This document shows, in pieces, positions 2,780 through 59,359 of a stretch of DNA of 64,000 nucleotides. The DNA comes from an uncultured bacterium (GTDB lineage: Bacteria > Krumholzibacteriota > Krumholzibacteriia > WVZY01 > JAKEHA01): NCBI GenBank assembly GCA_965371015.1, contig CBDUWU010000001.1, forward strand, positions 1,368 through 65,367, read 5' to 3'. Each line of letters begins with the position of its first letter. The first letter of the stretch is position 1. Made by a program: the position numbers and the translations under genes. The notes below the pieces were generated by a model. It made no database searches. It was not told where the DNA came from and saw nothing but the letters and a program-made list of their open reading frames with translations.

Positions 2780-3529
2780 ATGACTGACTCGTCACCCAGA
2801 ATCATGATCGAAGCGAAGGGGCTGTCGAAGTATTACGGCCCGTTCGTCGCGATCAAGGATATTACTTTTTCCATACCGGAGGGGCAGATCGTCGCGTTTC
2901 TGGGGCCCAACGGGGCTGGCAAGTCCACCACCATGAAAATCCTCAGCGGTTATCTCGCCCAGAGCGAGGGCAGCGCGAAGATCGCCGGTTTCGACGTCAC
3001 CAACCGGCGCCTCGATGCGGCCAGACACCTCGGGTACCTGCCCGAGAACGGCCCTCTATACAATGACATGACGCCGTCGGAATTGCTGAAATTCTTCGGC
3101 GAGGCCCGCGGACTTGCCGACGACCGTCTCGCCGGGAGGCTCGCCATCGTTGCCGAGCAGTGCGCTATCCGGGACGTGTGGGAAAAGCCGATCGGCAAGC
3201 TCTCGCGGGGGTACCGGCAGCGCGTCGGCCTGGCGCAGGCGCTCCTGCACGACCCCGACGTGCTGATAATGGACGAGCCCACCGCCGGTCTCGACCCCAA
3301 CCAGATCCGCGATTTCCGTAAGAACATCAGGGCCCTCGCCGTCTCCAAGACCATTCTGATTTCGACGCATATCCTTCAGGAGGTCGATGCGGTGGCGGAC
3401 CGGCTGCTGCTCGTGCACGACGGCTCGCTGCTCTTTGACGGGACACCCGACGATTTGATGGAATCGGGGTCGCTGGAAGAACCTTTCTACCGCCTCACAC
3501 ATACTGTCGAGGGGGGTGATGGGCGATGA
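2780..3529 (+). CDS. ABC transporter ATP-binding protein, GldA-like (ABC-2 type)
   Basis: Walker A GPNGAGKSTTMKIL, signature LSRGYRQRVGLAQAL, Walker B LIMDEPTAGLD; AGGAGA RBS 5 nt before ATG at 2780; stop overlaps next gene start. Confidence 0.85.
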   Translation: MTDSSPRIMIEAKGLSKYYGPFVAIKDITFSIPEGQIVAFLGPNGAGKSTTMKILSGYLAQSEGSAKIAGFDVTNRRLDAARHLGYLPENGPLYNDMTPSELLKFFGEARGLADDRLAGRLAIVAEQCAIRDVWEKPIGKLSRGYRQRVGLAQALLHDPDVLIMDEPTAGLDPNQIRDFRKNIRALAVSKTILISTHILQEVDAVADRLLLVHDGSLLFDGTPDDLMESGSLEEPFYRLTHTVEGGDGR

Positions 3530-6174
3530 AGATCAACTGGACCATCATCAAGGCGATTTCACGACGCGACCTGAGACTGTATTTCAGTAATCCCACCGGA
3601 TACGTATTTATAACGCTGTTCATCTTCCTGAGCGCGGCGGCGGCGTTCTGGCGCGAACGCTTTTTTTTGAACAACCTCGCCAACCTGGACCAGTTAAACG
3701 ATGTATTTCCCTTTCTGCTCCTGTTTTTTATCCCCGCCATTACGATGGGGGTCTGGGCGGACGAACGGCGACAGGGAACCGACGAGTTGTTACTCACGTT
3801 GCCCGCGACGAATCTGGAAGTGGTCCTCGGCAAGTATTTCTCCACGCTGGGTATTTATACGGCGGCCGTGCTGCTGTCTCTGAGCCACCTCGTGGTCCTC
3901 TTCTGGCTGGGCAAGCCCGACCTGGGGTTGATGTTGTCCAACTACATGGGATACTGGCTCATCGGCGCGGCGTTCATTTCGATCGGGATGCTGGCGTCGC
4001 TGTTGAGTTTCAATGCGACCGTGGCGTTCATTCTTGGGGCGATATTCTGTGCCGGACTCGTTTACATAGAGCCGATACTCGGCGTGTTCGGCAGAGACGC
4101 CGAGTCGATGGTCTCCAGTATCGCCGTATTTCCGCACCTCGATGACCTGACCAGGGGCGTCGTCAGCCTGAGCGCGGTCGTTTATTTTCTTTCGATTACC
4201 GGTTTGCTGCTGTATCTCAACGTGGTTCTGCTGGGACGGCGGCACTGGCCACAGGAGACGGGCAGACTTCGGATGGGTGCCCACCAGTCGGTCCGGGTGC
4301 TGGCGCTGGTCGTTGCGCTCATCGCGTTCAATACCCTTCTCGGGCGGGGAAGCGTCCGCGTCGACATGACCGCGGAGCGCCTCCACACGCTGTCCAGCGA
4401 AACCCGCACGCTGATCTCGGAGATCTCCGTCGACAGGCCCGTGTTCGTGCAGGCTTATATCAGCCCGGAAGTCCCGCGCAACTATGTACAGGCGCGGCGT
4501 GACCTCGTCGACTACCTCAAGGACATCGCCGCCGTCGGTGGAGACCGGGTGAAGCTGGTGATACACGACGTGGAGCCGTACAGTGAAGAGGCGAGAGAAG
4601 CGAGGGACAAGTTTGGAATCATGGCGATGGAGGTTCCGGGAATCGAAGGCAGCCGGGCGAACGTCTCGACCGTCTTCATGGGCGTGGCCTTCACGTGTGG
4701 AGCAGAAGAGGATATCATTCCGTTCTTCGACCGCGGCCTGCCCGTCGAATACGAGTTGGCGCGAAGCATACGGGTCGTCGCCCGGACGCAACGCAAACGG
4801 ATCGGCGTTGTGACGACGCAAGCCAATATTTTCGGCGGATTCGATTTCAACACTTTTGCCAGCAAGCCGGTGTGGTCCGTGGTAGAAGAGCTGGAGAAGC
4901 AGTACGAAGTACTGCAGATAACGGCGGCCGATTCGATGACTGAGACCCTGGACGGTCTGCTCGTCGCGCTTCCGTCGTCGCTATCCCAGGAAGAACTGGA
5001 CAATCTCCAGTCCTTCATCGAACTCGGCATGCCGACGCTGTTGCTGGTCGACCCGTTGCCCATCGTCGAGATCGGCCTCTCGCCCTCGGAGGACGCGGGG
5101 GCAAACGTCAACCCGTTCATGCGTAACCGGGGGCCGCAGCCCAAGCCGAAAGGCGACATTCAGGTTTTTCTGCAGAACCTGGGTGTTGGCTGGAACAAGG
5201 CCCAGATCATCTGGGACGCTTACAACCCCCACCCCGACCTCGCGAACGTTCGGCCCGAGATTGCGTTTATCGGCAGGGGAAACAAGAATCCCGACTCGTT
5301 CAACGACGGCTTTCCCGCCGTGGCCGGGTTGCAGGAGCTGGTGCTTCTGTTCCCGGGCACGGTGAACAAGACGCAGTCGCCCGATTTCACGTTCGAGCCG
5401 TTGGTCAGGACGAGCAAGGTGTCGGGCACGCTGCACTATAACCAGGTCGTGCAACGGTCGTTCTTTGGTGTGGGGCTGGCGCCGGGCAATATCCCGCACT
5501 ACCCGACCGGCGGTGATTACGTGCTCGCCGCCCGCGTTCACAGCGCGTCGGCCGAAGAAGGGGGAATCCATGTAATCGTCCTTGCCGATCTGGATTTCAT
5601 CTCGGAGCAGTTCTTCGAGATTCGCAAACGGGGAATCGAAAATCTCAATTTCGACAACATATCGTTTTTCCTCAATTGTATCGACGTCCTCGTCGGCGAC
5701 GACTCGTTCATCGCGCTCCGCAACCGCCGTGTCAAGCACCGCACGCTGACCACGGTGGAGGAAAAAGTCAGGGCATTCGCGGAGATACGTGCCGTCGAGG
5801 AACAGCAGGCCGAGATGGAAGCGCAGCGTGCGCTGTCTCAGGCCCAGCAACGGCTCGACAAGAATGTCGCCGAGGTAAGGATGCGCGATGATCTCGACGA
5901 GCAGACGAAGAGCATCATGGCGAGGAACCTGCAGGAGGTCGAGAACCGGCGTCTGGAGGCGGCCAAGTCGTCGATCGAATCAGAGCGAAACGTAAAGATC
6001 GAACGCAGCGAGGAAGCCATGGAAACACAGGTACGCGCGATACAGAGCAATATCAAGACGCTCGCCGGATTGCTTCCGCCAATCCCCGTGTTTGCGCTGG
6101 GCGTGCTGATTTTTCTCAAACGGCGGCGCCGCGAAAAAGAGGGCGCGGCAGCGGCAAGAAGGTTGAGGAGTTAG
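3526..6174 (+). CDS. fused ABC-2 permease (GldF-like, N-terminal ~240 aa, 6 TM) and GldG-like auxiliary domain (C-terminal ~640 aa) with coiled-coil and C-terminal TM anchor
   Basis: N-terminal hydrophobic ABC-2 permease-like region, then a large extracytoplasmic domain of GldG/ABC-type-uncharacterised-transport-system type; C-terminal coiled coil and TM (PPIPVFALGVLIFLKRRRRE). Confidence 0.75.
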   Translation: MKINWTIIKAISRRDLRLYFSNPTGYVFITLFIFLSAAAAFWRERFFLNNLANLDQLNDVFPFLLLFFIPAITMGVWADERRQGTDELLLTLPATNLEVVLGKYFSTLGIYTAAVLLSLSHLVVLFWLGKPDLGLMLSNYMGYWLIGAAFISIGMLASLLSFNATVAFILGAIFCAGLVYIEPILGVFGRDAESMVSSIAVFPHLDDLTRGVVSLSAVVYFLSITGLLLYLNVVLLGRRHWPQETGRLRMGAHQSVRVLALVVALIAFNTLLGRGSVRVDMTAERLHTLSSETRTLISEISVDRPVFVQAYISPEVPRNYVQARRDLVDYLKDIAAVGGDRVKLVIHDVEPYSEEAREARDKFGIMAMEVPGIEGSRANVSTVFMGVAFTCGAEEDIIPFFDRGLPVEYELARSIRVVARTQRKRIGVVTTQANIFGGFDFNTFASKPVWSVVEELEKQYEVLQITAADSMTETLDGLLVALPSSLSQEELDNLQSFIELGMPTLLLVDPLPIVEIGLSPSEDAGANVNPFMRNRGPQPKPKGDIQVFLQNLGVGWNKAQIIWDAYNPHPDLANVRPEIAFIGRGNKNPDSFNDGFPAVAGLQELVLLFPGTVNKTQSPDFTFEPLVRTSKVSGTLHYNQVVQRSFFGVGLAPGNIPHYPTGGDYVLAARVHSASAEEGGIHVIVLADLDFISEQFFEIRKRGIENLNFDNISFFLNCIDVLVGDDSFIALRNRRVKHRTLTTVEEKVRAFAEIRAVEEQQAEMEAQRALSQAQQRLDKNVAEVRMRDDLDEQTKSIMARNLQEVENRRLEAAKSSIESERNVKIERSEEAMETQVRAIQSNIKTLAGLLPPIPVFALGVLIFLKRRRREKEGAAAARRLRS

Positions 6175-10457: not shown

Positions 10458-10913
10458 ATGCGTGACGACGTCCACTGGATGGGCAAGGCGCTCGAAGAGG
10501 CACATCGTGCGTTCGAGCTCGGTGAGGTGCCGGTGGGGGCGGTCGTGGTCCACCGGGATCGCATCGCAGGCCGGGGCCATAACCGCACCGAGAGTTCGGG
10601 GCAGCCCTTCGAACACGCCGAGGTGGTGGCGATGTGGGATGCCGTGACCAACCTCCGGCGAAAAACTCTCGAAGACTGTATCCTCTATTCGACGGTCGAG
10701 CCGTGCGTGATGTGTATCGGCGCGGTCATTCTGGCGCGCGTACCCAGGGTGATTTTCGGCGTTCGCGAGCCGCGGACGGGCGCGTGCGAAAGCGTGTTTG
10801 CGATTCCCAACGATCCATCACTCGAAAATCCGGTAGTGGTTACTGGAGGAGTCGAAGAGGAGCGCGCCAGAGAACTCATGCAGGCGTTCTTCCGCCGCCG
10901 GAGAAACCCGTAG
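10458..10913 (+). CDS. tadA: tRNA-specific adenosine deaminase
   Basis: CMP/dCMP deaminase zinc motifs HAEVVAM and EPCVMCIGA; 151 aa. Confidence 0.85.
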   Translation: MRDDVHWMGKALEEAHRAFELGEVPVGAVVVHRDRIAGRGHNRTESSGQPFEHAEVVAMWDAVTNLRRKTLEDCILYSTVEPCVMCIGAVILARVPRVIFGVREPRTGACESVFAIPNDPSLENPVVVTGGVEEERARELMQAFFRRRRNP

Positions 10914-10974
10914 GGCAGGTAGCGACGAGGATTGTGGTTGATTCCGGGCCGGATGCGTGTATCGTTACTGCTAC

Positions 10975-11065
10975 GGAGAGATGCGAGAGCTGGCTTAATC
11001 GGCACGACTGGAAATCGTGTGTATGCGGAAGTGTACCGAGGGTTCGAATCCCTCTCTCTCCGCCA
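10975..11065 (+). tRNA. tRNA-Ser (anticodon GGA), class II with long variable arm
   Basis: GGAGAGA/TCTCTCC acceptor stem, anticodon loop CTGGAAA, T-loop GGTTCGAATCC, 3' GCCA. Confidence 0.85.
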
Positions 11066-11192
11066 TCCATTTATCCCGCGAAACGCCACGCGGGGACTCA
11101 CCCCGACGTGACTCCAAACCCCTTCCGCCCGATTCAGCCGTAACCGCATTTGCGGTCTTGCCCTCCCCCGCTCGATCCGCTATCATTCCCGC

Positions 11193-11282
11193 GGAGAGAT
11201 GCCAGAGCGGTTGAATGGGGCGGTCTCGAAAACCGTTGAGTGCGCAAGTGCTCCGGGGGTTCGAATCCCCCTCTCTCCGCCA
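11193..11282 (+). tRNA. tRNA-Ser (anticodon CGA)
   Basis: near-identical to E. coli tRNA-Ser(CGA): GGAGAGATGCC...GGTCTCGAAAACC...GGGGGTTCGAATCCCCCTCTCTCCGCCA. Confidence 0.85.
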
Positions 11283-11308
11283 TTTTTTTGATATTACCGG
11301 AATACGGT

Positions 11309-11384
11309 GGGGATGTAGCTCAGTTGGGAGAGCACCTCGTTCGCAACGAGGGGGCCGGCGGTTCGAGTCCGCTCATCTCCACCA
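11309..11384 (+). tRNA. tRNA-Ala (anticodon CGC)
   Basis: GGGGATGTAGCTCAGTTGGGAGAGC; G3-U70 Ala identity pair; anticodon loop TTCGCAA; encoded CCA. Confidence 0.85.
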
Positions 11385-11410
11385 TTTGAAATCTGACGCA
11401 GAACTGTTAA

Positions 11411-11692
11411 AGAGATCGTGCTAGACGGGGTGTTAGCGGTACCCTCTTCCCGCAATCCGCTATAGCGGGGTCGAATTCCCTCCCGCGGGCGACCGGGGTC
11501 GATGTTCACGATCGTGGAAGTGGCGTCGATGGTCAGGTCCCGCGCAATGGTCACCCACGAACCCCGTCAGGACCGGAAGGTAGCAGCGGTAACTGGATCT
11601 GATCATGTGATGCGGGGTCACCTGTCCGGAGTTAACCCGCGGTCGTGTCACGGGTCCGGCGTTCAACGGTGGGTGCACGATCTCTTTTTTTT
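11411..11692 (+). ncRNA. ffs: signal recognition particle RNA, large Bacillus-type (~275 nt), with U-tract terminator
   Basis: domain IV motif GTCAGGACCGGAAGGTAGCAGCGGTAA at 11566-11592 (about 20/22 match to bacterial GUCAGGUCCGGAAGGAAGCAGC); 5' AGAGATCGTGC (11411-11421) is exactly complementary to 3' GCACGATCTCT (11675-11685), giving a terminal helix followed by T8; sits immediately upstream of dnaX as in Bacillus. Confidence 0.6.
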
Positions 11693-11716
11693 CACCTGCC
11701 ATTTGTCGGGGGCGCG

Positions 11717-13507
11717 ATGAGCTACGAGGTTCTGGCGAGAAAATGGCGTCCGCTCAAGTTCGACGATGTCGTCGGGCAGGACCACATCACGCGGACGCTC
11801 AAGAAGGCGGTCGAGACGGACCGGGTGTCGCACGCCTACATGCTGGCCGGTCCCAGGGGCTGCGGCAAGACCAGCACGGCGCGCATCCTCGCCCGGGTGA
11901 TCAACTGCGAAACGCCGCCCGGAGATGGCAACCCCTGTAACGAATGTCCGTCCTGCATCGGCGTCATCCGGGGCAACAACCTCGACGTGATGGAAATCGA
12001 CGGTGCCTCCCACACTGGCGTCAGCGAAGTCCGCGACCTGCAGGAGAGCATCGGTTACGTCCCCAGCCAGTCCCGTAACAAGATCTACATCATCGACGAA
12101 GTCCACATGCTGTCGACGCACGCGTTCAACGCGCTCTTGAAGACGCTGGAAGAACCCCCGAATCACGTCTATTTTATTTTCGCCACCACTGCGCCCAACA
12201 AGATACCCGACACGATCAAGTCCCGTTGTCAGCGGCATCACTTCAAGCGAATGGAAATAAAAGAGATAGCCGGGCAACTAAAAAAGATCTGCGACGAGGA
12301 GGGGGTGGCAAGCGACGAAGAGGGGTTGAGACTCCTCGCCCGCAAGGCGGACGGCAGCATGAGGGACGGAACGAGTCTGCTCGATCAGTGCATCACGTCG
12401 TCGGACGGAAACATCACGACCGAATCGGTTCGAGACATCCTGGGACTGATCGACCAGGAGACGGTGTTCGCGTTCATGAGGAGTATCGCGGACGGCGATT
12501 CGACCGGGGCCCTTCGGCATTTGAGCGCGTGCATCGACGAGGGACTCGACGTCCAGGAGCTGTGCGCGGCGCTGTTGGAAGGGTACCGGGACCTGATGCT
12601 GCTGGCCACCCCGGGTGATCTCAGCGACCTGCTCTTTCGCTCCCGGGATGAAATCGAATTGATGCGCGAAATGCTTTCGGTCTACGAGTTGCCGGATCTG
12701 GTTACGATCGTGGAACGGTTGTGCGATGCTGTACCCCGGCTCAAATCGGCTGCCGATCCGAGGATTCAGCTGGAGAGCTTCCTCGTCGATCTTTCGCTGC
12801 TCGACCGACAGGTAGATATCCGCCGGCTCATCACGGACCTCGAGTCGCCCACAGGGGGCAAGGCCCCCGCAGGGGAAGGGGGTGCCGTCACGGGAACAGC
12901 TTCGCCGGCGGCGAGATCACCACGGCCGGGCTCGACAAAAAGAGATGCCTCCCCGGGGGGCGACGCGGGAAGACGGGGAAATGGTGGAGTGGAGCGAGCC
13001 GACGACGGAGAAACGGCGGGGACGGCCACTGTGATGACGCGGGACGAAGGCGCCGGAGCATTCCCGGCAAAAGATGAAAACGTCGCGTCGACGGGAGAAT
13101 TATCTCTGGATACGCACAAGATGCTGGAGCTGTGGGACGGATTCGTTTCGTTCGTCCGGCAGAAGAAGCTCCGCCTGGGCGTGAGCCTGATCTCGGGGAA
13201 GATACACTCGTTCGACGGAGCGACCTTGACGCTGCGCTTTGCCCGCAGTTTCGGTCCGCAAAAGGAACAGGTGATGAAACCGGAGAGCATGGAATATCTG
13301 CGGCGCATGCTGGCGAAGTATTTCGGGCGGGAGATCGACGTGGTGTGTTTCCAGGAAGGCGAGGAACGCGAAGCCCGGCTGGACCAGAAGGTAAGGACCG
13401 CGAAGGCGCCGACCGACCGCCTCCGTGGTATTGCGGAAGAGAAAAAACCGCTGGTGAAGAAGTTGCTCGACGAGTTCGACGGCGAAATCATCCGGTACAA
13501 CCCATGA
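11717..13507 (+). CDS. dnaX: DNA polymerase III subunits gamma/tau
   Basis: MSYEVLARKWRP..., Walker A GPRGCGKTSTARI, zinc module CNECPSCIG, IIDEVHMLS; C-terminal Pro/Gly-rich tau-like extension. Confidence 0.9.
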   Translation: MSYEVLARKWRPLKFDDVVGQDHITRTLKKAVETDRVSHAYMLAGPRGCGKTSTARILARVINCETPPGDGNPCNECPSCIGVIRGNNLDVMEIDGASHTGVSEVRDLQESIGYVPSQSRNKIYIIDEVHMLSTHAFNALLKTLEEPPNHVYFIFATTAPNKIPDTIKSRCQRHHFKRMEIKEIAGQLKKICDEEGVASDEEGLRLLARKADGSMRDGTSLLDQCITSSDGNITTESVRDILGLIDQETVFAFMRSIADGDSTGALRHLSACIDEGLDVQELCAALLEGYRDLMLLATPGDLSDLLFRSRDEIELMREMLSVYELPDLVTIVERLCDAVPRLKSAADPRIQLESFLVDLSLLDRQVDIRRLITDLESPTGGKAPAGEGGAVTGTASPAARSPRPGSTKRDASPGGDAGRRGNGGVERADDGETAGTATVMTRDEGAGAFPAKDENVASTGELSLDTHKMLELWDGFVSFVRQKKLRLGVSLISGKIHSFDGATLTLRFARSFGPQKEQVMKPESMEYLRRMLAKYFGREIDVVCFQEGEEREARLDQKVRTAKAPTDRLRGIAEEKKPLVKKLLDEFDGEIIRYNP

Positions 13508-13518
13508 CGAGGTGAACG

Positions 13519-13830
13519 ATGGCGAACATTGGAAAGATGATGAAGCAGGCCCAGGAGATGCAGGCCAAGATGGCCCAGCTGCAGGAAGAGCTGGCGAAGA
13601 CTGAGTTCGAGGTCTCGAGCGGCGGCGGAATGGTGACGGTCCGGATGAACGGTCAGCAGGAAATGCTGTCGCTCAAGATCGAGGATGAGGTATTCGCCGA
13701 CGGCGACAAGGAAATGCTGGAAGACCTGATCGTCGCCGCGGTCAGCGAGGCTCGCCAGAAAGCCGCCGAGTTGGCCCAGGAGCAGATGTCCTCACTCACC
13801 GGCGGCATGAATATCCCCGGTCTTTTTTAA
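13519..13830 (+). CDS. ybaB: nucleoid-associated protein YbaB/EbfC
   Basis: 103 aa, MKQAQEMQAKMAQLQEEL...GGMNIPGLF typical YbaB. Confidence 0.9.
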   Translation: MANIGKMMKQAQEMQAKMAQLQEELAKTEFEVSSGGGMVTVRMNGQQEMLSLKIEDEVFADGDKEMLEDLIVAAVSEARQKAAELAQEQMSSLTGGMNIPGLF

Positions 13831-13950
13831 TCACAGACCCGACGTTGAATTTGGATGGGCAGGCCGACGTAATAAGAGCCGGAGGCCCCCGGTGCCGACG
13901 CCAGCAGTCGAGGCGCGGCGGCGGTTATGTCTATAAGAGAAGGAGAGAGA

Positions 13951-14550
13951 ATGGATTACGGATCCGAGACGCTGGGGGCGCTGGTCAAGGCGCTATCGAG
14001 GTTGCCTGGGATCGGTTCCAAAACGGCCCAGCGGCTCGCCCTGTTTCTGCTCAGGGGCAAAAACGAAGAGGCCGAAACCCTCGGACACCTTCTGGCGATC
14101 CTCAAGGACAAGGTCCGGTTCTGTGACACCTGTGGCAGTATTACCGAGATCCAGGAATGTGCAATTTGCACGAATCCCGCCCGGAATCAGGAGCTGATCT
14201 GCGTCGTGGAGGAACCCCAGGACGTGCTAACTATCGAAAAAACAGGACAATACAGAGGGCTTTACCACGTTCTCCACGGTGTGTTGTCTCCGATCGACGG
14301 AGTCACCCCGGATAAGCTCGGCTTCAAGGCCCTGGAGGGGCGCGTACGGGCGGGTGAGGTCAAGGAAGTCATTGTCGCTACGAATCCTACTGTTGAAGGG
14401 GACACGACGGCGCTTTACATCGCAAAATCCCTCGTGTCCGCCCCCTGCACTGTCACGAGACTTGCTAGAGGTCTCCCAATGGGCGGAACCCTCGAATTCG
14501 CCGACGATTTAACCTTGGTGAAAGCGATCGAGCGCAGGGAAAAGCTGTAG
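13951..14550 (+). CDS. recR: recombination protein RecR
   Basis: HhH LPGIGSKTAQRLA, C4 zinc finger CDTCGSITE...CAIC, Toprim domain; GGAGAGAG RBS before ATG 13951. Confidence 0.9.
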   Translation: MDYGSETLGALVKALSRLPGIGSKTAQRLALFLLRGKNEEAETLGHLLAILKDKVRFCDTCGSITEIQECAICTNPARNQELICVVEEPQDVLTIEKTGQYRGLYHVLHGVLSPIDGVTPDKLGFKALEGRVRAGEVKEVIVATNPTVEGDTTALYIAKSLVSAPCTVTRLARGLPMGGTLEFADDLTLVKAIERREKL

Positions 14551-14625
14551 CCGCAGCGAACCGTGCTTCGGCGCGTGTCGTGCCCTGTGCGACAACCGGT
14601 ACCGGATTCGGACTGGAGCGAGTGT

Positions 14626-15123
14626 ATGATAAAGGCTGACTGGACAATTTACGAAGAAGACTACTGGGCCATAAACAGTGTCCTCAAAGAACTCATCGAC
14701 AATTCCAATTCCCAGAGCGTGCTGCTGATAGACAAAACCGGGCAGCTCATCGCCAGCGTAGGCATGGAGCCCGAGTTTGATCTCATGAGCTTCGCCTCGC
14801 TGTGTGCGGCGGATTTCGAAGCCAATGCGCAACTGGCTAATTTGATCGGTGAAAAAGATTTTTCTACGCTGTACCACCAGGGCTCCGACGAGAGCATGTA
14901 CCTGTCAAGAGTGGCGCAGGCGATTATTCTTGTCGTGCTGTTCAACAAGCGTACGACTCTCGGTCTGGTCCGGCTGCGCGTCAAAAAAGCGGTCGAAGGA
15001 CTCAACACGATACTCAACGGTCTTTTCGATAAACTCGAATACGAAAACGAAGACCTCAAGGAATTCGACGCCGAATTTGCCGACGAGCTGAACAAAGAAA
15101 TCGATTCACTTTTCCAGGACTGA
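14626..15123 (+). CDS. mglB: Roadblock/LC7 domain protein, MglB-like GTPase-activating protein
   Basis: ~165 aa Roadblock-type sequence ([16 protein letters not shown]...) directly upstream of and co-oriented with mglA. Confidence 0.7.
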
Positions 15124-15139
15124 CGCAGGGAGCCGGTGC

Positions 15140-15724
15140 ATGTCGCTCATCAATTACTCGTCGCGTGAAATCAACTGCAAGATCGTGTACTACGGCGCTG
15201 GTTTGTGCGGCAAGACCACGAACATCCAGCACGTTTACAACAAGGTCGATCCCGGAACCAAGGGCAAGCTGATCACGCTGGCCACAGAGATGGACCGCAC
15301 GCTGTTCTTTGACTTTCTCCCGCTCGAACTGGGTACCGTCAAGGGATTCAAGACCCGGTTCCACCTCTACACCGTGCCCGGCCAGGTGTACTACGACGCG
15401 TCGCGCAAGCTCATCCTGCGCGGGGTCGACGGTATCGTATTCGTCGCCGACTCGCAGACCGCGCGCTTCGACGCCAATATCGAGAGCCTGTACAACCTCC
15501 ACGACAACCTCGATGAGTACAAGCTCAAGATCGAGGACATACCGTTCGTCATCCAGTACAACAAACGGGACATGCCGGACATCATCACCATGGAAGACCT
15601 CGAGCAGGAGCTCAATCCCGAAGGGTACCCCAGTTACGAGGCCGTGGCCGTCCAGGGCGACGGTGTGTTCGACACGCTCAAGGCCGTGGCCAAAGGCGTT
15701 CTCAAAAAACTTTCCCAGAACTGA
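15140..15724 (+). CDS. mglA: Ras-like small GTPase MglA
   Basis: [16 protein letters not shown]-loop, DTAG-equivalent TVPGQ, NKRD G4 motif; 194 aa. Confidence 0.85.
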
Positions 15725-15760: not shown

Positions 15761-15787
15761 ATCCGCCCCCGGGCGGATATTTTCTTT
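15761..15787 (+). terminator. rho-independent terminator after mglA
   Basis: ATCCGCCC-CC-GGGCGGAT hairpin followed by ATTTTCTTT. Confidence 0.5.
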
Positions 15788-15828
15788 GAGCCGGGTCGCC
15801 CGGGCCTTCCGGACCCGGCGGCCTGTTA

Positions 15829-16344
15829 TTGCCCCCTATCGCTCACCCTCCCCGGGAGGCATGCTTGGACTTCTTCGTCCGGTTGATCGGCACGTTCGGG
15901 TACACCGGCTTCTTTCCGGTCGGTCCCGCGACGTTTGCATCGCTCGTATTCGTCCTGATCTACGCGTTCGTGCCCGGCGGCGAGGTCGTGGCGCACCCGA
16001 TCGTCTGCGTGGTCACGCTGGTCGTTTCGATCCCGGTGTCGACGAGGATGGAGAAATTCTACGGAAAGGACCCCGGGTGTGTCGTGATCGACGAGATCGT
16101 GGGTATGCAGGCCGTGCTCGTGGGCGCTTCCGGCGTGGGGCTGTGGGGGTTGGTGGCCGCCTTCGCGTTGTTCCGCGTCTTCGACATCGCCAAGCCTTTT
16201 CCCGCGGGCCGCTCTCAGCACCTGCCGGGCGGGTGGGGAATCGTCATCGACGACGTCGTGGCCGGTATCTACGCGCGCATATCCGTGATCCTGTTGTCCC
16301 TTTTGATCCCGTCGCTGGGCGGGTTCGTGCCCTGGGGCGGTTGA
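15829..16344 (+). CDS. pgpA: phosphatidylglycerophosphatase A
   Basis: FVRLIGTFGYTGFFPVGPATFASL aligns with E. coli PgpA LLAVGFGSGLSPIVPGTMGSL; C-terminal GGWGIVIDDVVAGIYA matches GGMGIMIDDIVAGV; exact start uncertain. Confidence 0.7.
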   Translation: MPPIAHPPREACLDFFVRLIGTFGYTGFFPVGPATFASLVFVLIYAFVPGGEVVAHPIVCVVTLVVSIPVSTRMEKFYGKDPGCVVIDEIVGMQAVLVGASGVGLWGLVAAFALFRVFDIAKPFPAGRSQHLPGGWGIVIDDVVAGIYARISVILLSLLIPSLGGFVPWGG

Positions 16345-16364
16345 ACTTCCATCGGAAAGTGGTG

Positions 16365-17621
16365 ATGATTGTGTCCAGGAGTGACGTGGAAATCCTGCTC
16401 GTCGGCGATGAACTGCTCAAGGGCGAACGAACCGACGCGCACGCGGTGTGGCTGGGTAGCCGGCTCCTCGGCCTCGGAGCGCGGGTGGCGCGAGTCTGTA
16501 CCGTCGGCGATGACGTCGGGGAAATCTCGGCCATCATCCGCGATCGGCTCGCGGCGACACGTGTTCTGATTGTGACAGGGGGGCTCGGCCCGACGCCGGA
16601 CGACGTCACCGCCGAGGCAGTCTCCTCGGCCCTCGGACTCGGCCAGGAGTTCCACGAACCTTCCTGGGAAGCTATCCAGAGAATCTTCGCAGCCCACGGC
16701 CGCCAGGCGACGGACATCAACCGCAAACAGGCGATGTTTCCCGCCGGCGCGGCGGTGCTTCCAAACGAACTGGGAACGGCGCCCGGATTCACCGTCGATG
16801 CCCACGGAGCGACGATCTTCGTGCTGCCGGGACCGCCCGTGGAGGTGCACCGAATGTTCGAGAACGACGTGCTCCCGCGTTTGAGTGCGATCTTCGGGAA
16901 TGAACCGGTACGGGTCGAAACGTATCGCACCATCGGAGTCGGCGAGTCGTCGCTGCGCGAACTCATCGGGGACAAACTCGATGCCTTGTCCGCATACAAT
17001 GTGTCGTCGCTTCCTTCCCGGATCAGCGTCGACATCATCCTGACGGAAAAGCCGGACCTCACCGACAGAAATGTTCTCGAGGAAGAGGCCAACCGTTTCG
17101 AGCGCGACCTTCGTCAAAAGATCGGCAACTATTTCTTTGAGCGCGGCCCTCGTTCACTGTTCAACGTCGTCCACGACCGGCTCATACAGAGCGGCGAAAC
17201 GCTGGCCGTCGCCGAGTCCCTGACCGGCGGATGGATCGGCAAGCAGTTCACCGACCTCCCCGGAAGCAGCGCCTACCTCCTGTCCGATGTGGTGGCCTAC
17301 GCCGACCGGGCAAAAGCCGAATTCCTGGGCGTGCAGCCGGAAACGATCGAAAAGTACGGCGCTGTCAGCGAGGAAACGTGCACCGAAATGGCCCACGGCG
17401 CCCGGCACAAGAGCGGCGCCACCTGGGGGCTGGCGACAACCGGGATTGCCGGTCCGGACGGGGGTACGCCCAGAAAGCCCGTGGGGTTGACCTATCTCGG
17501 CATCTCCTGGGACGGAGGATGCCTGGTCAAACGCCAGGTGTACGCGGGCACCCGTGACGACGTGCGGCGGCGGGCAAGCGCCGGCGTTGTGTGGATGTTG
17601 TTCGACCGGCTGAATTCGTGA
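16365..17621 (+). CDS. cinA: competence/damage-inducible protein CinA (MoeA-like N-domain + NMN deamidase C-domain)
   Basis: VEILLVGDELLKG N-terminus, C-terminal CinA motif LAVAESLTGGWIGKQFTDLPGSS; the long 15786 ORF is read-through in the same frame, true start ATG 16365. Confidence 0.85.
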   Translation: MIVSRSDVEILLVGDELLKGERTDAHAVWLGSRLLGLGARVARVCTVGDDVGEISAIIRDRLAATRVLIVTGGLGPTPDDVTAEAVSSALGLGQEFHEPSWEAIQRIFAAHGRQATDINRKQAMFPAGAAVLPNELGTAPGFTVDAHGATIFVLPGPPVEVHRMFENDVLPRLSAIFGNEPVRVETYRTIGVGESSLRELIGDKLDALSAYNVSSLPSRISVDIILTEKPDLTDRNVLEEEANRFERDLRQKIGNYFFERGPRSLFNVVHDRLIQSGETLAVAESLTGGWIGKQFTDLPGSSAYLLSDVVAYADRAKAEFLGVQPETIEKYGAVSEETCTEMAHGARHKSGATWGLATTGIAGPDGGTPRKPVGLTYLGISWDGGCLVKRQVYAGTRDDVRRRASAGVVWMLFDRLNS

Positions 17622-55931: not shown

Positions 55932-55939
55932 ATCATATG

Positions 55940-56059
<120 letters not shown>

Positions 56060-56234
56060 TCATGGCAGGCGTACACGGCGCGCCCCTTTCCGGGGGCGGT
56101 GCAGGTTGACGTCCCCTCGGGGATGTCCGCCGGCTTATATATCCCTGTATTCTCCCTCGATTTCCCCCGATCGTTACCGGTAAAAGCCGCACAACTTGTA
56201 ATACGACCACGCGCCGGCCCCGACGCCGGCCGAT

Positions 56235-57404
56235 TTGAACATGGAGTATCAACCCGAAATCACCACGGGCAACGCCGGCACCACGTCGGGACGCGTCGAC
56301 GACGTGTTCATGACGAGGGCGCTCGAGCTCGCCTGGCAGGCCGCCGGGAAAACCAATCCCAACCCCCTCGTCGGTGCGGTCGTCGTCAAGGAAGGCACGG
56401 TCGTCGGCGAAGGATTTCATCACCGCTGCGGTGAGGCGCACGCCGAGATAGAGGCGTTGTTGCAGGCGGGTGAGGGAGCGAGGGACGCGACCATGTACGT
56501 CACCCTCGAGCCATGCGCCCACCATGGCCGGACCCCGCCGTGCGCCGGGCAACTGGTGGCGGCGGGAATACGCCGTGTCGTAATGCCGACAAGCGACCCC
56601 GATCCGAAGGTTCGCGGACGGGGCGTCGAAGTGCTTCGGTCAGCGGGGATTCGAGTCGACACCGGGTGCGCCGAGGCGGCCGCCATTGCCACCAATATCG
56701 CTTATTACAAGCAGCGCCTGGGGCTCGGTGCCACCGTTGTACTCAAGATGGCGGTCACGATCGACGGGAAGATCGCTTCCGCGCCCGGTCGGCGGGACCG
56801 GGTCAGTTCGGATGCGTCTCATCAATACGTCCACCGGTTGCGCGCGAACAGCGATGGTATCGCCGTCGGGATCAATACCGTGAAGACAGATGACCCCCGG
56901 CTCGACTGCCGTCTGATCGATTGCGGCGCCGCTCCGGTGCCCGTCGTCCTGGACGGGAATCTCGATCTGCCCGCCGACAACCGGTGGGCGAGGGAAGGAC
57001 GCCCCTTTGTGGTCGTCGGTGACGCTGCCGCCGGCGCCGCCGGCGCCAGAGCCGATGCCTTGCGCAAGGGCGGGGGGCGTGTGCTCTCGTGCGCGTCGGA
57101 CGGAGAAGGCCGGGTGGATGTCGCCCTGGCGACGCAGTTGTTGTCCGGCGCCGGCTTCGAGAGGATTCTGGTCGAGGGTGGAGGGCAGTTGTTTACGAGT
57201 TTTCTTCGCGCCGGATTATGGGATGCCATGTTTCTTTTCCATGCGCCGAGGGCATTCGGGAGCGGTGGGGTCCCGGTCTTCACGGACTCCGACCCGGTCG
57301 ATCCGGACACGGTCACCGTCGACGCGGTCCGGCTCGAAGGCGACTTTCTGCACAGGCATGTCAACCGCCGTACGTACGGTGAAATCGTTGCGAAATTGAA
57401 ATAA
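56235..57404 (+). CDS. ribD: bifunctional riboflavin biosynthesis protein RibD (deaminase/reductase); start uncertain (56235, 56241 or 56310)
   Basis: deaminase HAEIEAL and LEPCAHHGRTPPC; C-terminal RibD reductase domain ...VEGGGQL. Confidence 0.85.
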   Translation: MNMEYQPEITTGNAGTTSGRVDDVFMTRALELAWQAAGKTNPNPLVGAVVVKEGTVVGEGFHHRCGEAHAEIEALLQAGEGARDATMYVTLEPCAHHGRTPPCAGQLVAAGIRRVVMPTSDPDPKVRGRGVEVLRSAGIRVDTGCAEAAAIATNIAYYKQRLGLGATVVLKMAVTIDGKIASAPGRRDRVSSDASHQYVHRLRANSDGIAVGINTVKTDDPRLDCRLIDCGAAPVPVVLDGNLDLPADNRWAREGRPFVVVGDAAAGAAGARADALRKGGGRVLSCASDGEGRVDVALATQLLSGAGFERILVEGGGQLFTSFLRAGLWDAMFLFHAPRAFGSGGVPVFTDSDPVDPDTVTVDAVRLEGDFLHRHVNRRTYGEIVAKLK

Positions 57405-58028: not shown

Positions 58029-58078
58029 GTTCGAATCATCACGTCACGGTGTCTGACGCCGAACACGGGAGACGACAA

Positions 58079-59359
58079 ATGGGTGTTTTTGCCACAATAG
58101 AAGAAGCGATCGATGAAATAAGAAGCGGCAGTATCGTGATTGTGGTCGACGACGAAGACCGCGAAAACGAAGGCGACATGGTGCTGGCCGCCGACAAAGT
58201 GACCGTCGAAAAGGTCAATTTTCTCACCAAGCACGCGCGGGGCCTGATCTGTGTGCCGGTCACACCCGAGCGATCCCACGAGCTGGACCTCCAGCCGATG
58301 GTGCAGCACAATACCTGCCAGTACGGGACGGCTTTCACGGTATCCGTCGATGTCACGAAAGGCACCACCACCGGGATCAGCGCGTTCGACCGCGCAGCCA
58401 CGATCGGGGCGCTCGTCGACCCCGCGGTGAGGGCGGCGGATTTCACGCGGCCGGGGCATATCTTTCCGCTGACGGCGTCAGCCGGAGGTGTTTTACGCCG
58501 CGCCGGTCACACCGAGGCGTCCGTGGACCTCGCCCGCCTGGCCGGATTGACGCCGGCGGGCGTTTTGTGCGAGATTCTCGATGACGATGGTTCGATGGCG
58601 AGACTGCCCCGTTTGAAACGGGTCGCGGAGGAGCACAATCTGAAGATCATCACGATCAGCGACTTGATCAAGTACCGGCGCAAGACGGAAAAGTTCGTCG
58701 AGATGGTGGAAGATGTGAAGTTCCCGACCGAATTCGGGAAGTTCAGCCTGCGGCTGTACAAGAGTTCGATCAGCGGCAATCTGCATTTTGCTCTCGTCAA
58801 GGGAACGGTTGGCGGCAGTGAACCAACGCTGGTGCGCGTCCATTCGCAGTGCTTTACCGGTGACGTGCTCGGTTCGCTTCGATGCGACTGCGGTCCCCAG
58901 TTGCACCGCTCGTTGATGCAGATCGAAAAGGTGGGGAGTGGTGTGTTGCTCTACATGAGGCAGGAGGGCCGTGGAATCGGGCTCGAGAACAAGATCAAGG
59001 CGTATGCGCTCCAGGAGCAGGGACTGGATACCGTCGAAGCCAACGCCTCACTCGGTTTTCCGCCGGATCTCCGCGACTACGGCGTTGGAGCGCAGATACT
59101 GTCCGATCTGGGCGTGAGCAAGATCAGGCTGTTGACCAACAATCCCAGAAAGGTTGTGGGGCTTTCGGCGTACGGACTGGAGATAGTGGAACGGGTCTCG
59201 ATCGAGATACCGGCGAACGAGAACAACCGCCGCTATCTGTCGACCAAGCACCACAAGCTGGGACACATGCTGACCCAGTTCGCGGATGCGGAACAGGAAT
59301 CAAATACGGATCAGAATCTGGATGAAACGGAAGGAAGAGGGGCAACCCATGCCAAGTGA
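58079..59359 (+). CDS. ribBA: bifunctional 3,4-dihydroxy-2-butanone-4-phosphate synthase / GTP cyclohydrolase II
   Basis: [12 protein letters not shown] (RibB) and CDCGPQL...RQEGRGIGL (RibA zinc site); GGGAG RBS before ATG 58079. Confidence 0.9.

Follow-up and report, generated by a model that had tools for sequence, protein, structure and literature searches.

A full-length large SRP RNA gene upstream of dnaX in an uncultured, apparently double-membraned bacterium

The analysed stretch of DNA, 64 kb in length and called here the window, carries on its forward strand a gene, ffs, for the large, Alu-domain-containing form of the SRP RNA (positions 11409-11687, Rfam core 11416-11680). The core matches the family RF01854 (Bacteria_large_SRP) with 195.4 bits against a gathering score of 60 (E 8.8e-33, + strand). 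All model positions, 1-256 of 256, are covered with high posterior probability and no truncation, and in the competition within the SRP clan, RF00169 included, the large bacterial model is the match that is kept. We put the probability at about 0.93 that the SRP RNA of this organism is encoded here in the long form, at 11409/11416-11680/11687, with the function, expression and ancestry proposed below.

The original prediction had read from the letters a large RNA of the Bacillus type, ~275 nt long, and not a 4.5S RNA. The end-to-end match to RF01854 agrees with this, and the size is a fair estimate, since the RNA has 265 nt by the Rfam limits and 275-279 nt with an extended helix 1. An Rfam scan had been named as the check, and the large model won it over its full length with 195.4 bits. 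Two outcomes had been named as counting against the prediction, an assignment to the small model only and a terminal helix lacking covariation; what was found is a full-length large model and a strongly covarying helix. The gene is an ordinary, full-length addition to a known RNA family and no new kind of molecule. It gives useful context for SRP evolution and annotation, and standard Rfam-based pipelines would label it correctly. The notable point is only the host, which looks to be a double-membraned uncultured bacterium whose nearest named relatives have the short form.

Structure of the RNA and its terminal helix

The predicted RNA combines helix 1 with an Alu 5' domain made of helices 2-4 and a loop-loop pseudoknot, and has in addition a long helix 5 and an S domain formed by helix 8; this architecture, with a model of elongation arrest by RNA only, has been described by Kempf et al. 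2014 (PMC4231752). The minimum free energy fold of 11409-11687 gives the SRP architecture, with a z-score of only -1.99, so that the fold energy alone is weak evidence. Homologues were compared by nhmmer and Rfam. Large SRP RNAs of 189-201 bits occupy the same syntenic site in six relatives (L081, L083, L086, L087, L089 and L090), and those of L150, L214 and L215 score 194-195 bits. RNAalifold on nine homologues gives 87 consensus pairs, of which 39 have a compensatory change on both sides. The small form, RF00169, is a hairpin of ~100 nt with the S domain only, whereas this RNA has a full, conserved Alu domain and a conserved helix 1.

Helix 1, which closes the 5' and 3' ends of the RNA and is a feature specific to prokaryotes, is formed by positions 11411-11421 (AGAGATCGTGC) and 11675-11685 (GCACGATCTCT), whose complementarity over 11 bp is perfect. 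It can be extended to 13 bp (11409-11421 with 11675-11687), and 10 bp of it are conserved in the clade (11412-11421 with 11675-11684). In 45 non-redundant large SRP RNAs, 99.8% of the helix 1 cells are paired, compared with 37-49% in the slid controls, and 8 of the 13 pairs have changes on both sides. Covariation in helices 1, 2 and 4 is far above that of both the shuffled and the slid controls. On this comparative evidence the terminal helix is real, as had been predicted from its perfect 11 bp and the U-tract behind it. The latter is a terminator-like run of eight T (T8, 11686-11693, + strand), seen in the sequence directly 3' of helix 1 and overlapping the final two pairs of the 13-bp extension.

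These features could also be read mainly as a signal that terminates or attenuates transcription of the tRNA operon and dnaX, and not as a structural helix 1. The perfect GC-rich helix is followed immediately by T8 with dnaX 24 nt downstream, and all five of the closest genomes (the window, L081, L083, L086 and L087) have a T run of 5-8 behind helix 1. We regard this reading as extremely improbable. Helix 1 with compensatory changes is found in essentially all of the 45 large SRP RNAs, while a T run is present in 14 of 76; L150, L089 and L090 have none, and termination after helix 1 is thus not conserved. Helix 1 is moreover a defined structural element, of 9 bp, in the B. subtilis crystal structure (PMC4231752). 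The terminator role and the structural role are compatible and do not exclude each other. A simple terminator scan reported no hairpin terminator near ffs; T8 was not flagged because the "hairpin" in front of it is the entire RNA, which lies outside the pattern of the scan.

The S-domain core (helix 8 with a GGAA tetraloop, 11556-11598, + strand) has the sequence GAACCCCGUCAGGACCGGAAGGUAGCAGCGGUAA, which is identical in the eight closest relatives and agrees with the Rfam consensus. Its central part, GUCAGGACC-GGAA-GGUAGCAGC at 11563-11586, likewise agrees with the consensus and is invariant in the relatives. Helix 8, a tetraloop of the GNAR type and the conserved internal loops are all present, and the internal-loop residues appear to be those that form the known binding site of the Ffh M domain. 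By analogy with this well-studied family, the S domain would bind Ffh, and the GGAA tetraloop would organise the GTPase cycle of Ffh and FtsY in co-translational membrane targeting. As proposed for B. subtilis, the protein-free Alu domain could reach the elongation-factor site of the ribosome and slow elongation during targeting. The genes ffh and ftsY are not in the 64-kb window.

HU-family proteins are, to our knowledge, near-universal in bacteria. The suggestion that a long SRP RNA implies an HBsu-like partner is unsupported; the long RNA says nothing about HBsu. The Alu RNA of B. subtilis needs no protein to adopt its closed form, and HBsu was never shown to have a specific role in SRP (Kempf 2014, PMC4231752). 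No HU gene was found in the window by tblastn with approximate HBsu and HupA query sequences.

The Alu domain and its unusual linker

In the Rfam alignment the Alu 5' domain spans 11427-11478 (+ strand), with helix 3 at 11427-11445 and helix 4 at 11454-11474. Helices 2, 3 and 4 and the complementary loops that define this domain in RF01854 (pseudoknot t1) are all found. The loop-loop pseudoknot pairs UAGCGG (11434-11439) with CCGCUA (11457-11462). Its five core pairs (AGCGG/CCGCU) form in 100% of the 45 sequences; four of them never vary and the fifth is changed in one sequence only, so these almost invariant pairs are supported by conservation and not by covariation. A sixth pair on the outside, U-A, can form in 30 of the 45 sequences. 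Compensatory changes are seen in four of the five pairs of helix 4 and in two of the four pairs of helix 2 in the same 45 sequences.

The linker between helices 3 and 4 is UCUU in the window instead of the usual UGUA, and the conserved "UGU" does not occur in it. U-G is present at this place in 39 of the 45 non-redundant large SRP RNAs. As far as the alignment can tell, the UGU motif, near-universal in other Alu cores, is missing from the lineage of the window. Rfam membership does not depend on the UGU of the linker, which is a conserved motif. In bacteria it forms no U-turn (PMC4231752). For these two reasons UCUU is read as a lineage variant and does not exclude the RNA from the family. In B. 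subtilis, G35 and A37, which are equivalent to linker residues, make a sheared pair; with UCUU in their place, the geometry of the Alu junction, and possibly the arrest activity, may differ or be weakened.

The loss of this motif could be taken to mean that only a 4.5S-like S domain (~11530-11640) is functional and that the "Alu" sequence on its flanks is a relic in decay, heading for the loss already present in Krumholzibacteria. A small RNA at the same site suffices in the close relatives L088, L211-L213 and L115, and L121 provides an example of a partial relic. This view is nevertheless very improbable. No other part of the RNA is as well conserved as the Alu 5' domain among relatives that share only 55% identity in DnaX. 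The loops of this domain do not vary, and the alignment to RF01854 spans the entire model with high posterior probability. In addition, helices 1, 2, 4 and 5 stay paired through compensatory changes, which makes a neutral relic unlikely, since a relic would not preserve pairing.

The full-length, Alu-bearing RNA of the window can be compared with the known SRP RNAs. It shares helices 1-5 and 8 with the B. subtilis scRNA (6S SRP RNA, RF01854, ~271 nt), and like it has no helix 6. The pseudoknot of 5-6 bp (AGCGG/CCGCU), the S-domain core and the GGAA tetraloop are the same as in large SRP RNAs of the B. subtilis type. SRP RNAs of Bacillaceae are 61-63% identical to it in the alignment, and their loci share neighbours with the window, tadA upstream and dnaX-ybaB downstream. 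However, the host belongs to a diderm candidate lineage and not to Bacillota or Thermotogota, the linker is UCUU and not UGUA, the usual A.G mismatch of helix 3 is replaced by a U-A pair, helix 1 has 10-13 bp compared with 9 bp in B. subtilis, and the gene appears to be placed in a tRNA operon. The S domain is common to this RNA and the small SRP RNA (4.5S, RF00169), and the small RNA occupies this very locus in L088 and L211-L213, where its S domain hardly differs in sequence from that of the window. Compared with 4.5S RNA, ~165 extra nucleotides make up the Alu domain, the extended helix 5 and helix 1. A helix 1 and an Alu domain whose pseudoknot is extended are likewise part of the archaeal 7S SRP RNA (PMC4231752), but unlike the RNA of the window, archaeal SRP RNAs keep helix 6, the SRP19 site and an extra U-turn nucleotide.

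The host and the origin of the long form

Relatives were reached through RecA and DnaX homologues and the contigs carrying them. By the similarity of these two proteins the uncultured host, which does look diderm, is placed near Candidatus Krumholzibacteria and Latescibacterota. These are the labels borne by its RecA and DnaX relatives, and Latescibacterota belong to the FCB group. The window also encodes a Wza-like exporter, and this together with the RecA and DnaX relatives bears out the earlier view of a diderm host. A scan of GTDB genomes for dnaX with generic motifs gave no relative above 46% identity among the matches listed.

The gene order had been called the classic Firmicutes arrangement. 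It is indeed found in Bacillaceae loci as tadA-ffs-dnaX-ybaB, but it is not specific to Firmicutes: ffs, in either form, adjoins dnaX upstream in genomes of the Desulfobacterota type, Nitrospirota, Spirochaetota and Planctomycetota, and it lies directly upstream of dnaX, again in either form, in 78 of 98 metagenome loci selected solely by the SRP S-domain motif. The idea of a Firmicutes signature misplaced in a diderm is unsupported.

In the nearest named relatives, labelled Krumholzibacteria at NCBI, the small form occupies the same locus, and this points to a probable loss of the Alu domain in place in this group. Small SRP RNAs follow the same tRNAs at the same spot in L088, L211, L212 and L213, and in L121 the Alu 5' half is deleted and an orphan 3' strand is left. 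Since relatives deleted the Alu domain at the same locus, the long form of the window is most simply understood as a retained ancestral state.

A wider proposal, which we consider as apt to fail as to hold, is that the long, Alu-bearing form was ancestral in the diderm lineage related to Krumholzibacteria and Latescibacterota, and probably well beyond it, and that the locus keeps a decay series. If true, the series would run from a full Alu domain with UGU (L090 and Scalindua L025), through a domain still full but with its core degenerated to UCU/UUU (the clade of the window) and an orphan 3' strand (L121), to a clean 4.5S RNA (L088, L211-L213). Why most bacteria were able to give up SRP elongation arrest, an old question, could then be tested by comparisons within one clade, and the rule that Gram-positive means long and Gram-negative short would be a sampling artefact. 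In reviews the long SRP RNA is a Gram-positive trait with Thermotogae as the sole exception (PMC4231752, PMC8230904). The window, its relatives and many metagenome loci show that uncultured diderm lineages commonly carry the long form, and suggest that the Alu domain has been removed in place more than once. Literature searches returned nothing usable on a phylum-level survey of large SRP RNAs or on Latescibacteria.

Neighbouring genes and expression

All genes of the cluster lie on the + strand. The upstream neighbour is tadA, of the tRNA adenosine deaminase family (10458-10913; Pfam MafB19-deam 8.3e-32, dCMP_cyt_deam_1 1.2e-27), in a position common to L081, L087, L089 and L215. The predicted Ser/Ser/Ala tRNA cluster was recovered by ARAGORN at 10975-11384 as tRNA-Ser(GGA) (10975-11065; Rfam tRNA 51.4 bits), tRNA-Ser(CGA) (11193-11282) and tRNA-Ala(CGC) with an encoded CCA end (11309-11384; Rfam tRNA 66.6 bits). 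Every close relative has a tRNA-Ser(CGA) before ffs, as do the two distant loci L003 and L025. Pfam places dnaX-ybaB-recR directly downstream of the SRP RNA, as had been described: dnaX, for DNA polymerase III gamma/tau, starts with ATG at 11717 (11717-13507; DNA_pol3_delta2 8.8e-43, DNAX_ATPase_lid, DNA_pol3_gamma3) and is followed by ybaB/ebfC (13519-13830; YbaB_DNA_bd 8.8e-35) and recR (13927-14550; Toprim_4, RecR_HhH, RecR_C, RecR_ZnF). The RNA and dnaX are 22-34 nt apart in all close relatives with the large form.

A candidate promoter of the sigma-70 type, CTTGCC-17 nt-TATCAT (11157-11186, + strand), was located by a promoter scan and by conservation, and ends 6 nt before tRNA-Ser(CGA). 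The scan hit covers 11158-11186, and such a match is expected 0.2 times in shuffles, with a sigma-70 pattern that may not be that of the host phylum. In 11 relatives (alignment A2) CTTGC and TA..AT are invariant while the flanks have diverged. The spacer between tRNA-Ala and ffs is unconserved and has only ~16 nt in L089, which leaves no room for a separate promoter. The conserved promoter suggests a single transcript of two tRNAs and the SRP RNA. It would probably start a precursor of tRNA-Ser(CGA), tRNA-Ala(CGC) and SRP RNA, to be cut apart by tRNA-processing enzymes and end-trimming nucleases. In the sublineage of the window most transcripts probably stop at helix 1 and the T8 behind it, and read-through past T8 would feed dnaX-ybaB-recR.

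Farther along the window, an ORF of 611 aa (15786-17621) was considered as a fusion of pgpA and cinA and rejected, its 200 N-terminal residues having no PgpA match. A separate ORF of 171 aa in another frame (15829-16344) fits the pgpA of relatives, and for both reasons the 611-aa ORF is most likely an over-extended call.

The SRP RNA gene and its neighbors

The SRP RNA gene (ffs) is located at 11416-11680 on the forward strand, where the Rfam scan of the whole window found the Alu-domain-bearing large form, Bacteria_large_SRP (RF01854), with a score of 195.4 bits and an E-value of 8.8e-33 (the Rfam gathering score is 60). The model is aligned end to end, positions 1-256 of 256, without truncation. 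A permissive Rfam rescan of 10900-11800 gave no match competing with RF01854, and the region is not explained by the small, 4.5S form (RF00169) alone. The 11-bp terminal helix of the original prediction, 11411-11421 with 11675-11685, is perfectly complementary and can be extended to 13 bp (11409-11421 with 11675-11687), the outermost two pairs being overlapped by a run of eight T at 11686-11693. Helix 1 is 9 bp long in the crystal structure of B. subtilis SRP RNA (PMC4231752), while it reaches up to 13 bp here; its typical length in 76 large SRP RNAs is 8-11 bp.

Folding of 11409-11687 in isolation recovered helices 1, 3, 4 and 8 together with the long helix 5, with an energy z-score of -1.99; thermodynamics alone is weak evidence. 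The RNAalifold consensus of nine aligned large SRP RNAs, including those of Scalindua (L025) and locus L003, contains 87 pairs, 39 of which are retained despite two-sided changes. Covariation was tested on 45 non-redundant large SRP RNAs with a structure specified by us (helices 1-4 plus the pseudoknot). In this structure 92.8% of cells are paired, compared with 37-49% with slid partners; 16 pairs show compensatory change, and none of 500 shuffles attained any observed measure. Helix 1 is paired in 99.8% of cells and compensatory at 8 of 13 positions. The five pairs of the core pseudoknot AGCGG/CCGCU are formed in all 45 sequences, and their support is conservation rather than covariation, since four never vary and the fifth is altered in one sequence only. 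An outer sixth pair, U-A, is formed in 30 of the 45. The full-length RF01854 match and the covarying helix therefore establish 11416-11680 as a genuine large SRP RNA. It belongs to a well-known family of housekeeping RNA, for which any Rfam-based annotation pipeline would be expected to give the correct label; the present analysis adds the phylogenetic context, the likely cotranscription of tRNA and SRP RNA, and a degenerate UGU motif.

The predicted Ser/Ser/Ala tRNA cluster (10975-11384) was recovered by ARAGORN as tRNA-Ser(GGA) at 10975-11065, tRNA-Ser(CGA) at 11193-11282 and tRNA-Ala(CGC) at 11309-11384. Pfam places TadA at 10458-10913 and supports all three gene identities proposed downstream: DnaX (ATG at 11717, end at 13507), YbaB (13519-13830) and RecR (13927-14550). 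Directly 3' of recR, Pfam identified MglB-like (Roadblock/LC7) and MglA-like (small Ras/Arf-like GTPase) genes at 14563-15724 (+), a pair kept in every relative fetched, and then CinA. RecA, AlaS, SMC and the Wza-like exporter, the last also expected from the original prediction, were recovered farther downstream with NCBIfam. The 611-aa ORF at 15786-17621 (+) is probably an over-extended cinA call; its CinA domains begin only at residue 202, and a 171-aa ORF in a different frame (15829-16344) occupies the position of pgpA in relatives. An FMN riboswitch (RF00050, full model, 117 bits) was found at 55937-56062 (+), upstream of a 389-aa ORF (56235-57404) and ribBA (58049-59359).

The locus in related bacteria

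Most of the contigs fetched round RecA and DnaX homologues (L081, L083, L086-L090, L211-L215) share the order tadA-tRNAs-ffs-dnaX-ybaB-recR-mglB-mglA-pgpA-cinA-ligT-recA-recX-alaS-wza. Rfam finds a syntenic large SRP RNA of 189-201 bits in L081, L083, L086, L087, L089 and L090, of which L089 and L090 are Latescibacteria/Latescibacterota MAGs by NCBI label, and a large form of 194-195 bits in L150, L214 and L215. At the identical syntenic site (tRNA-Ser, tRNA-Ala, ffs, dnaX), RF00169 identifies a small form in L088:277-376, L211:1345-1444, L212:1348-1447 and L213:1349-1448. L211 and L212, both Candidatus Krumholzibacteria by NCBI label, score 71-77 bits. The DnaX proteins of these four relatives are 59-63% identical to that of the window, and their S-domain sequence is almost identical to its S domain. 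Two further loci look intermediate: in L115:600-760 the stem measures about 140 nt and the Alu 5' domain is missing, and L121:494-660 is a small SRP RNA with its 5' half and Alu 5' domain gone, in which the 3' strand of helices 5 and 1 survives as an orphan (GGTGCACGGTC), followed by a T run. From these comparisons, the small and intermediate forms look like deletions of the Alu domain in place.

The linker between helices 3 and 4, equivalent to UGU(A), lies at 11445-11449. It is UCUU in the window, L081 and L087, UUUU in L083, L086, L150 and L089, and UGUU in L090. UG is kept in 39 of the 45 non-redundant large SRP RNAs, and UCUU or UUUU is limited to the window's clade (the window, L081, L083, L086, L087, L089 and L150). 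The A·G mismatch usual in helix 3 (33 of 45) is replaced in this clade by a U-A pair. In B. subtilis, G35 of the linker makes a sheared pair with A37 (PMC4231752). Because the remaining Alu domain is strongly conserved, we favor a lineage-specific junction variant over decay; the change may or may not affect function.

Transcription of the cluster

The sole promoter-like site detected by the promoter scan within 10700-12000 is TTGCCC-17-TATCAT at 11158-11186; read as CTTGCC-17-TATCAT (11157-11186, +), it ends 6 nt 5' of tRNA-Ser(CGA). CTTGC and TA..AT are invariant in 11 relatives, the small-ffs loci included, while the flanks diverge, which suggests that sigma-70-type promoters are in use in the candidate lineage of the host. 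The stretch from tRNA-Ala to ffs shows no conservation and in L089 measures just about 16 nt. The simplest reading is that tRNA-Ser, tRNA-Ala and SRP RNA are likely cotranscribed, with expression inferred, as a single precursor that would be processed afterwards. The scRNA of B. subtilis is likewise matured out of a longer precursor.

In the window and the four relatives closest to it, helix 1 is followed by a run of 5-8 T, which L150, L089 and L090 lack. Of all 76 large SRP RNAs, 14 carry such a run. Helix 1 with its T run is a recurrent terminator-like arrangement, not a defining one. The dnaX start lies 22-34 nt past the RNA in every close relative with the large form, and dnaX probably depends on read-through past ffs, which would feed its expression.

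Gene order and host affinity

The order ffs-dnaX-ybaB-recR had been described as a Firmicutes arrangement. The nhmmer model built from the large SRP RNA alignment (A1) found SRP RNA in 39 of the 80 GTDB dnaX loci listed, 17 large and 22 small, and 37 of the 39 lie no more than 320 nt upstream of dnaX. The large forms belong to Bacilli, Clostridia, Scalindua and three other bacteria; the small forms belong to Desulfobacterota-type bacteria, Nitrospirota, Spirochaetota, Planctomycetota, Selenomonas and some Clostridia. An exact scan of metagenomes with a 34-nt S-domain motif gave at least 120 loci, and the 120 listed comprise 66 large, 51 small and 3 cut-off forms. Downstream sequence of 400 nt or more is available for 98 of the listed loci; in 78 of these a same-strand dnaX begins no more than 320 nt away. 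The occurrence of ffs by dnaX in these loci and in the Desulfobacterota-type, Nitrospirota, Spirochaetota and Planctomycetota genomes contradicts a Firmicutes-specific order. TadA homologues are found in many of the ffs/dnaX loci compared. Both tRNA-Ser(CGA) and tRNA-Ser(GGA) stand directly 5' of a large ffs, followed by dnaX, in L003:2343-2852 and in Scalindua of the Planctomycetota (L025:2442-2977); the linkage therefore spans very distant phyla. The tadA/tRNA-Ser/ffs/dnaX/ybaB/recR cluster is therefore old and widespread, and its presence in a diderm is no paradox.

Gram-negative SRP RNA has been said to be without the Alu domain, with Thermotogae as the exception (PMC4231752), and the 6S form of SRP RNA has been treated as a Gram-positive trait (PMC8230904). 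The lineage of the window contradicts a Gram-positive-only rule, and so do Latescibacterota, Scalindua and dozens of loci from metagenomes.

The long RNA had also been taken to imply a possible partner like HBsu, the HU-family protein of Bacillus. A tblastn search of the 64-kb window with approximate HBsu and HupA queries gave no HU-family gene. To our knowledge, HU proteins are near-universal among bacteria. The Alu RNA of Bacillus reaches its closed fold protein-free, and a specific SRP role of HBsu was never established (PMC4231752). The long RNA therefore implies nothing as to a dedicated partner.

An exact-match look-up of the RecR protein gave no record. Searches with RecA and DnaX found metagenome proteins of up to 92-93% identity. 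The named matches, with identities of 59-63% for DnaX and 71-81% for RecA, are exclusively Candidatus Krumholzibacteria or Latescibacteria/Latescibacterota. Of the dnaX matches listed from GTDB representative genomes, where generic motifs took up the listing, none exceeded 46% identity. We take the host to be an uncultured diderm-type bacterium without a closely related named genome, because all named matches fall in these groups and NCBI classes Latescibacterota within the FCB group. An 882-aa protein at 3526-6174 (+) gave weak, below-cutoff matches to two ABC components of gliding motility, the permease GldF and GldG, which would fit an FCB-group affinity.
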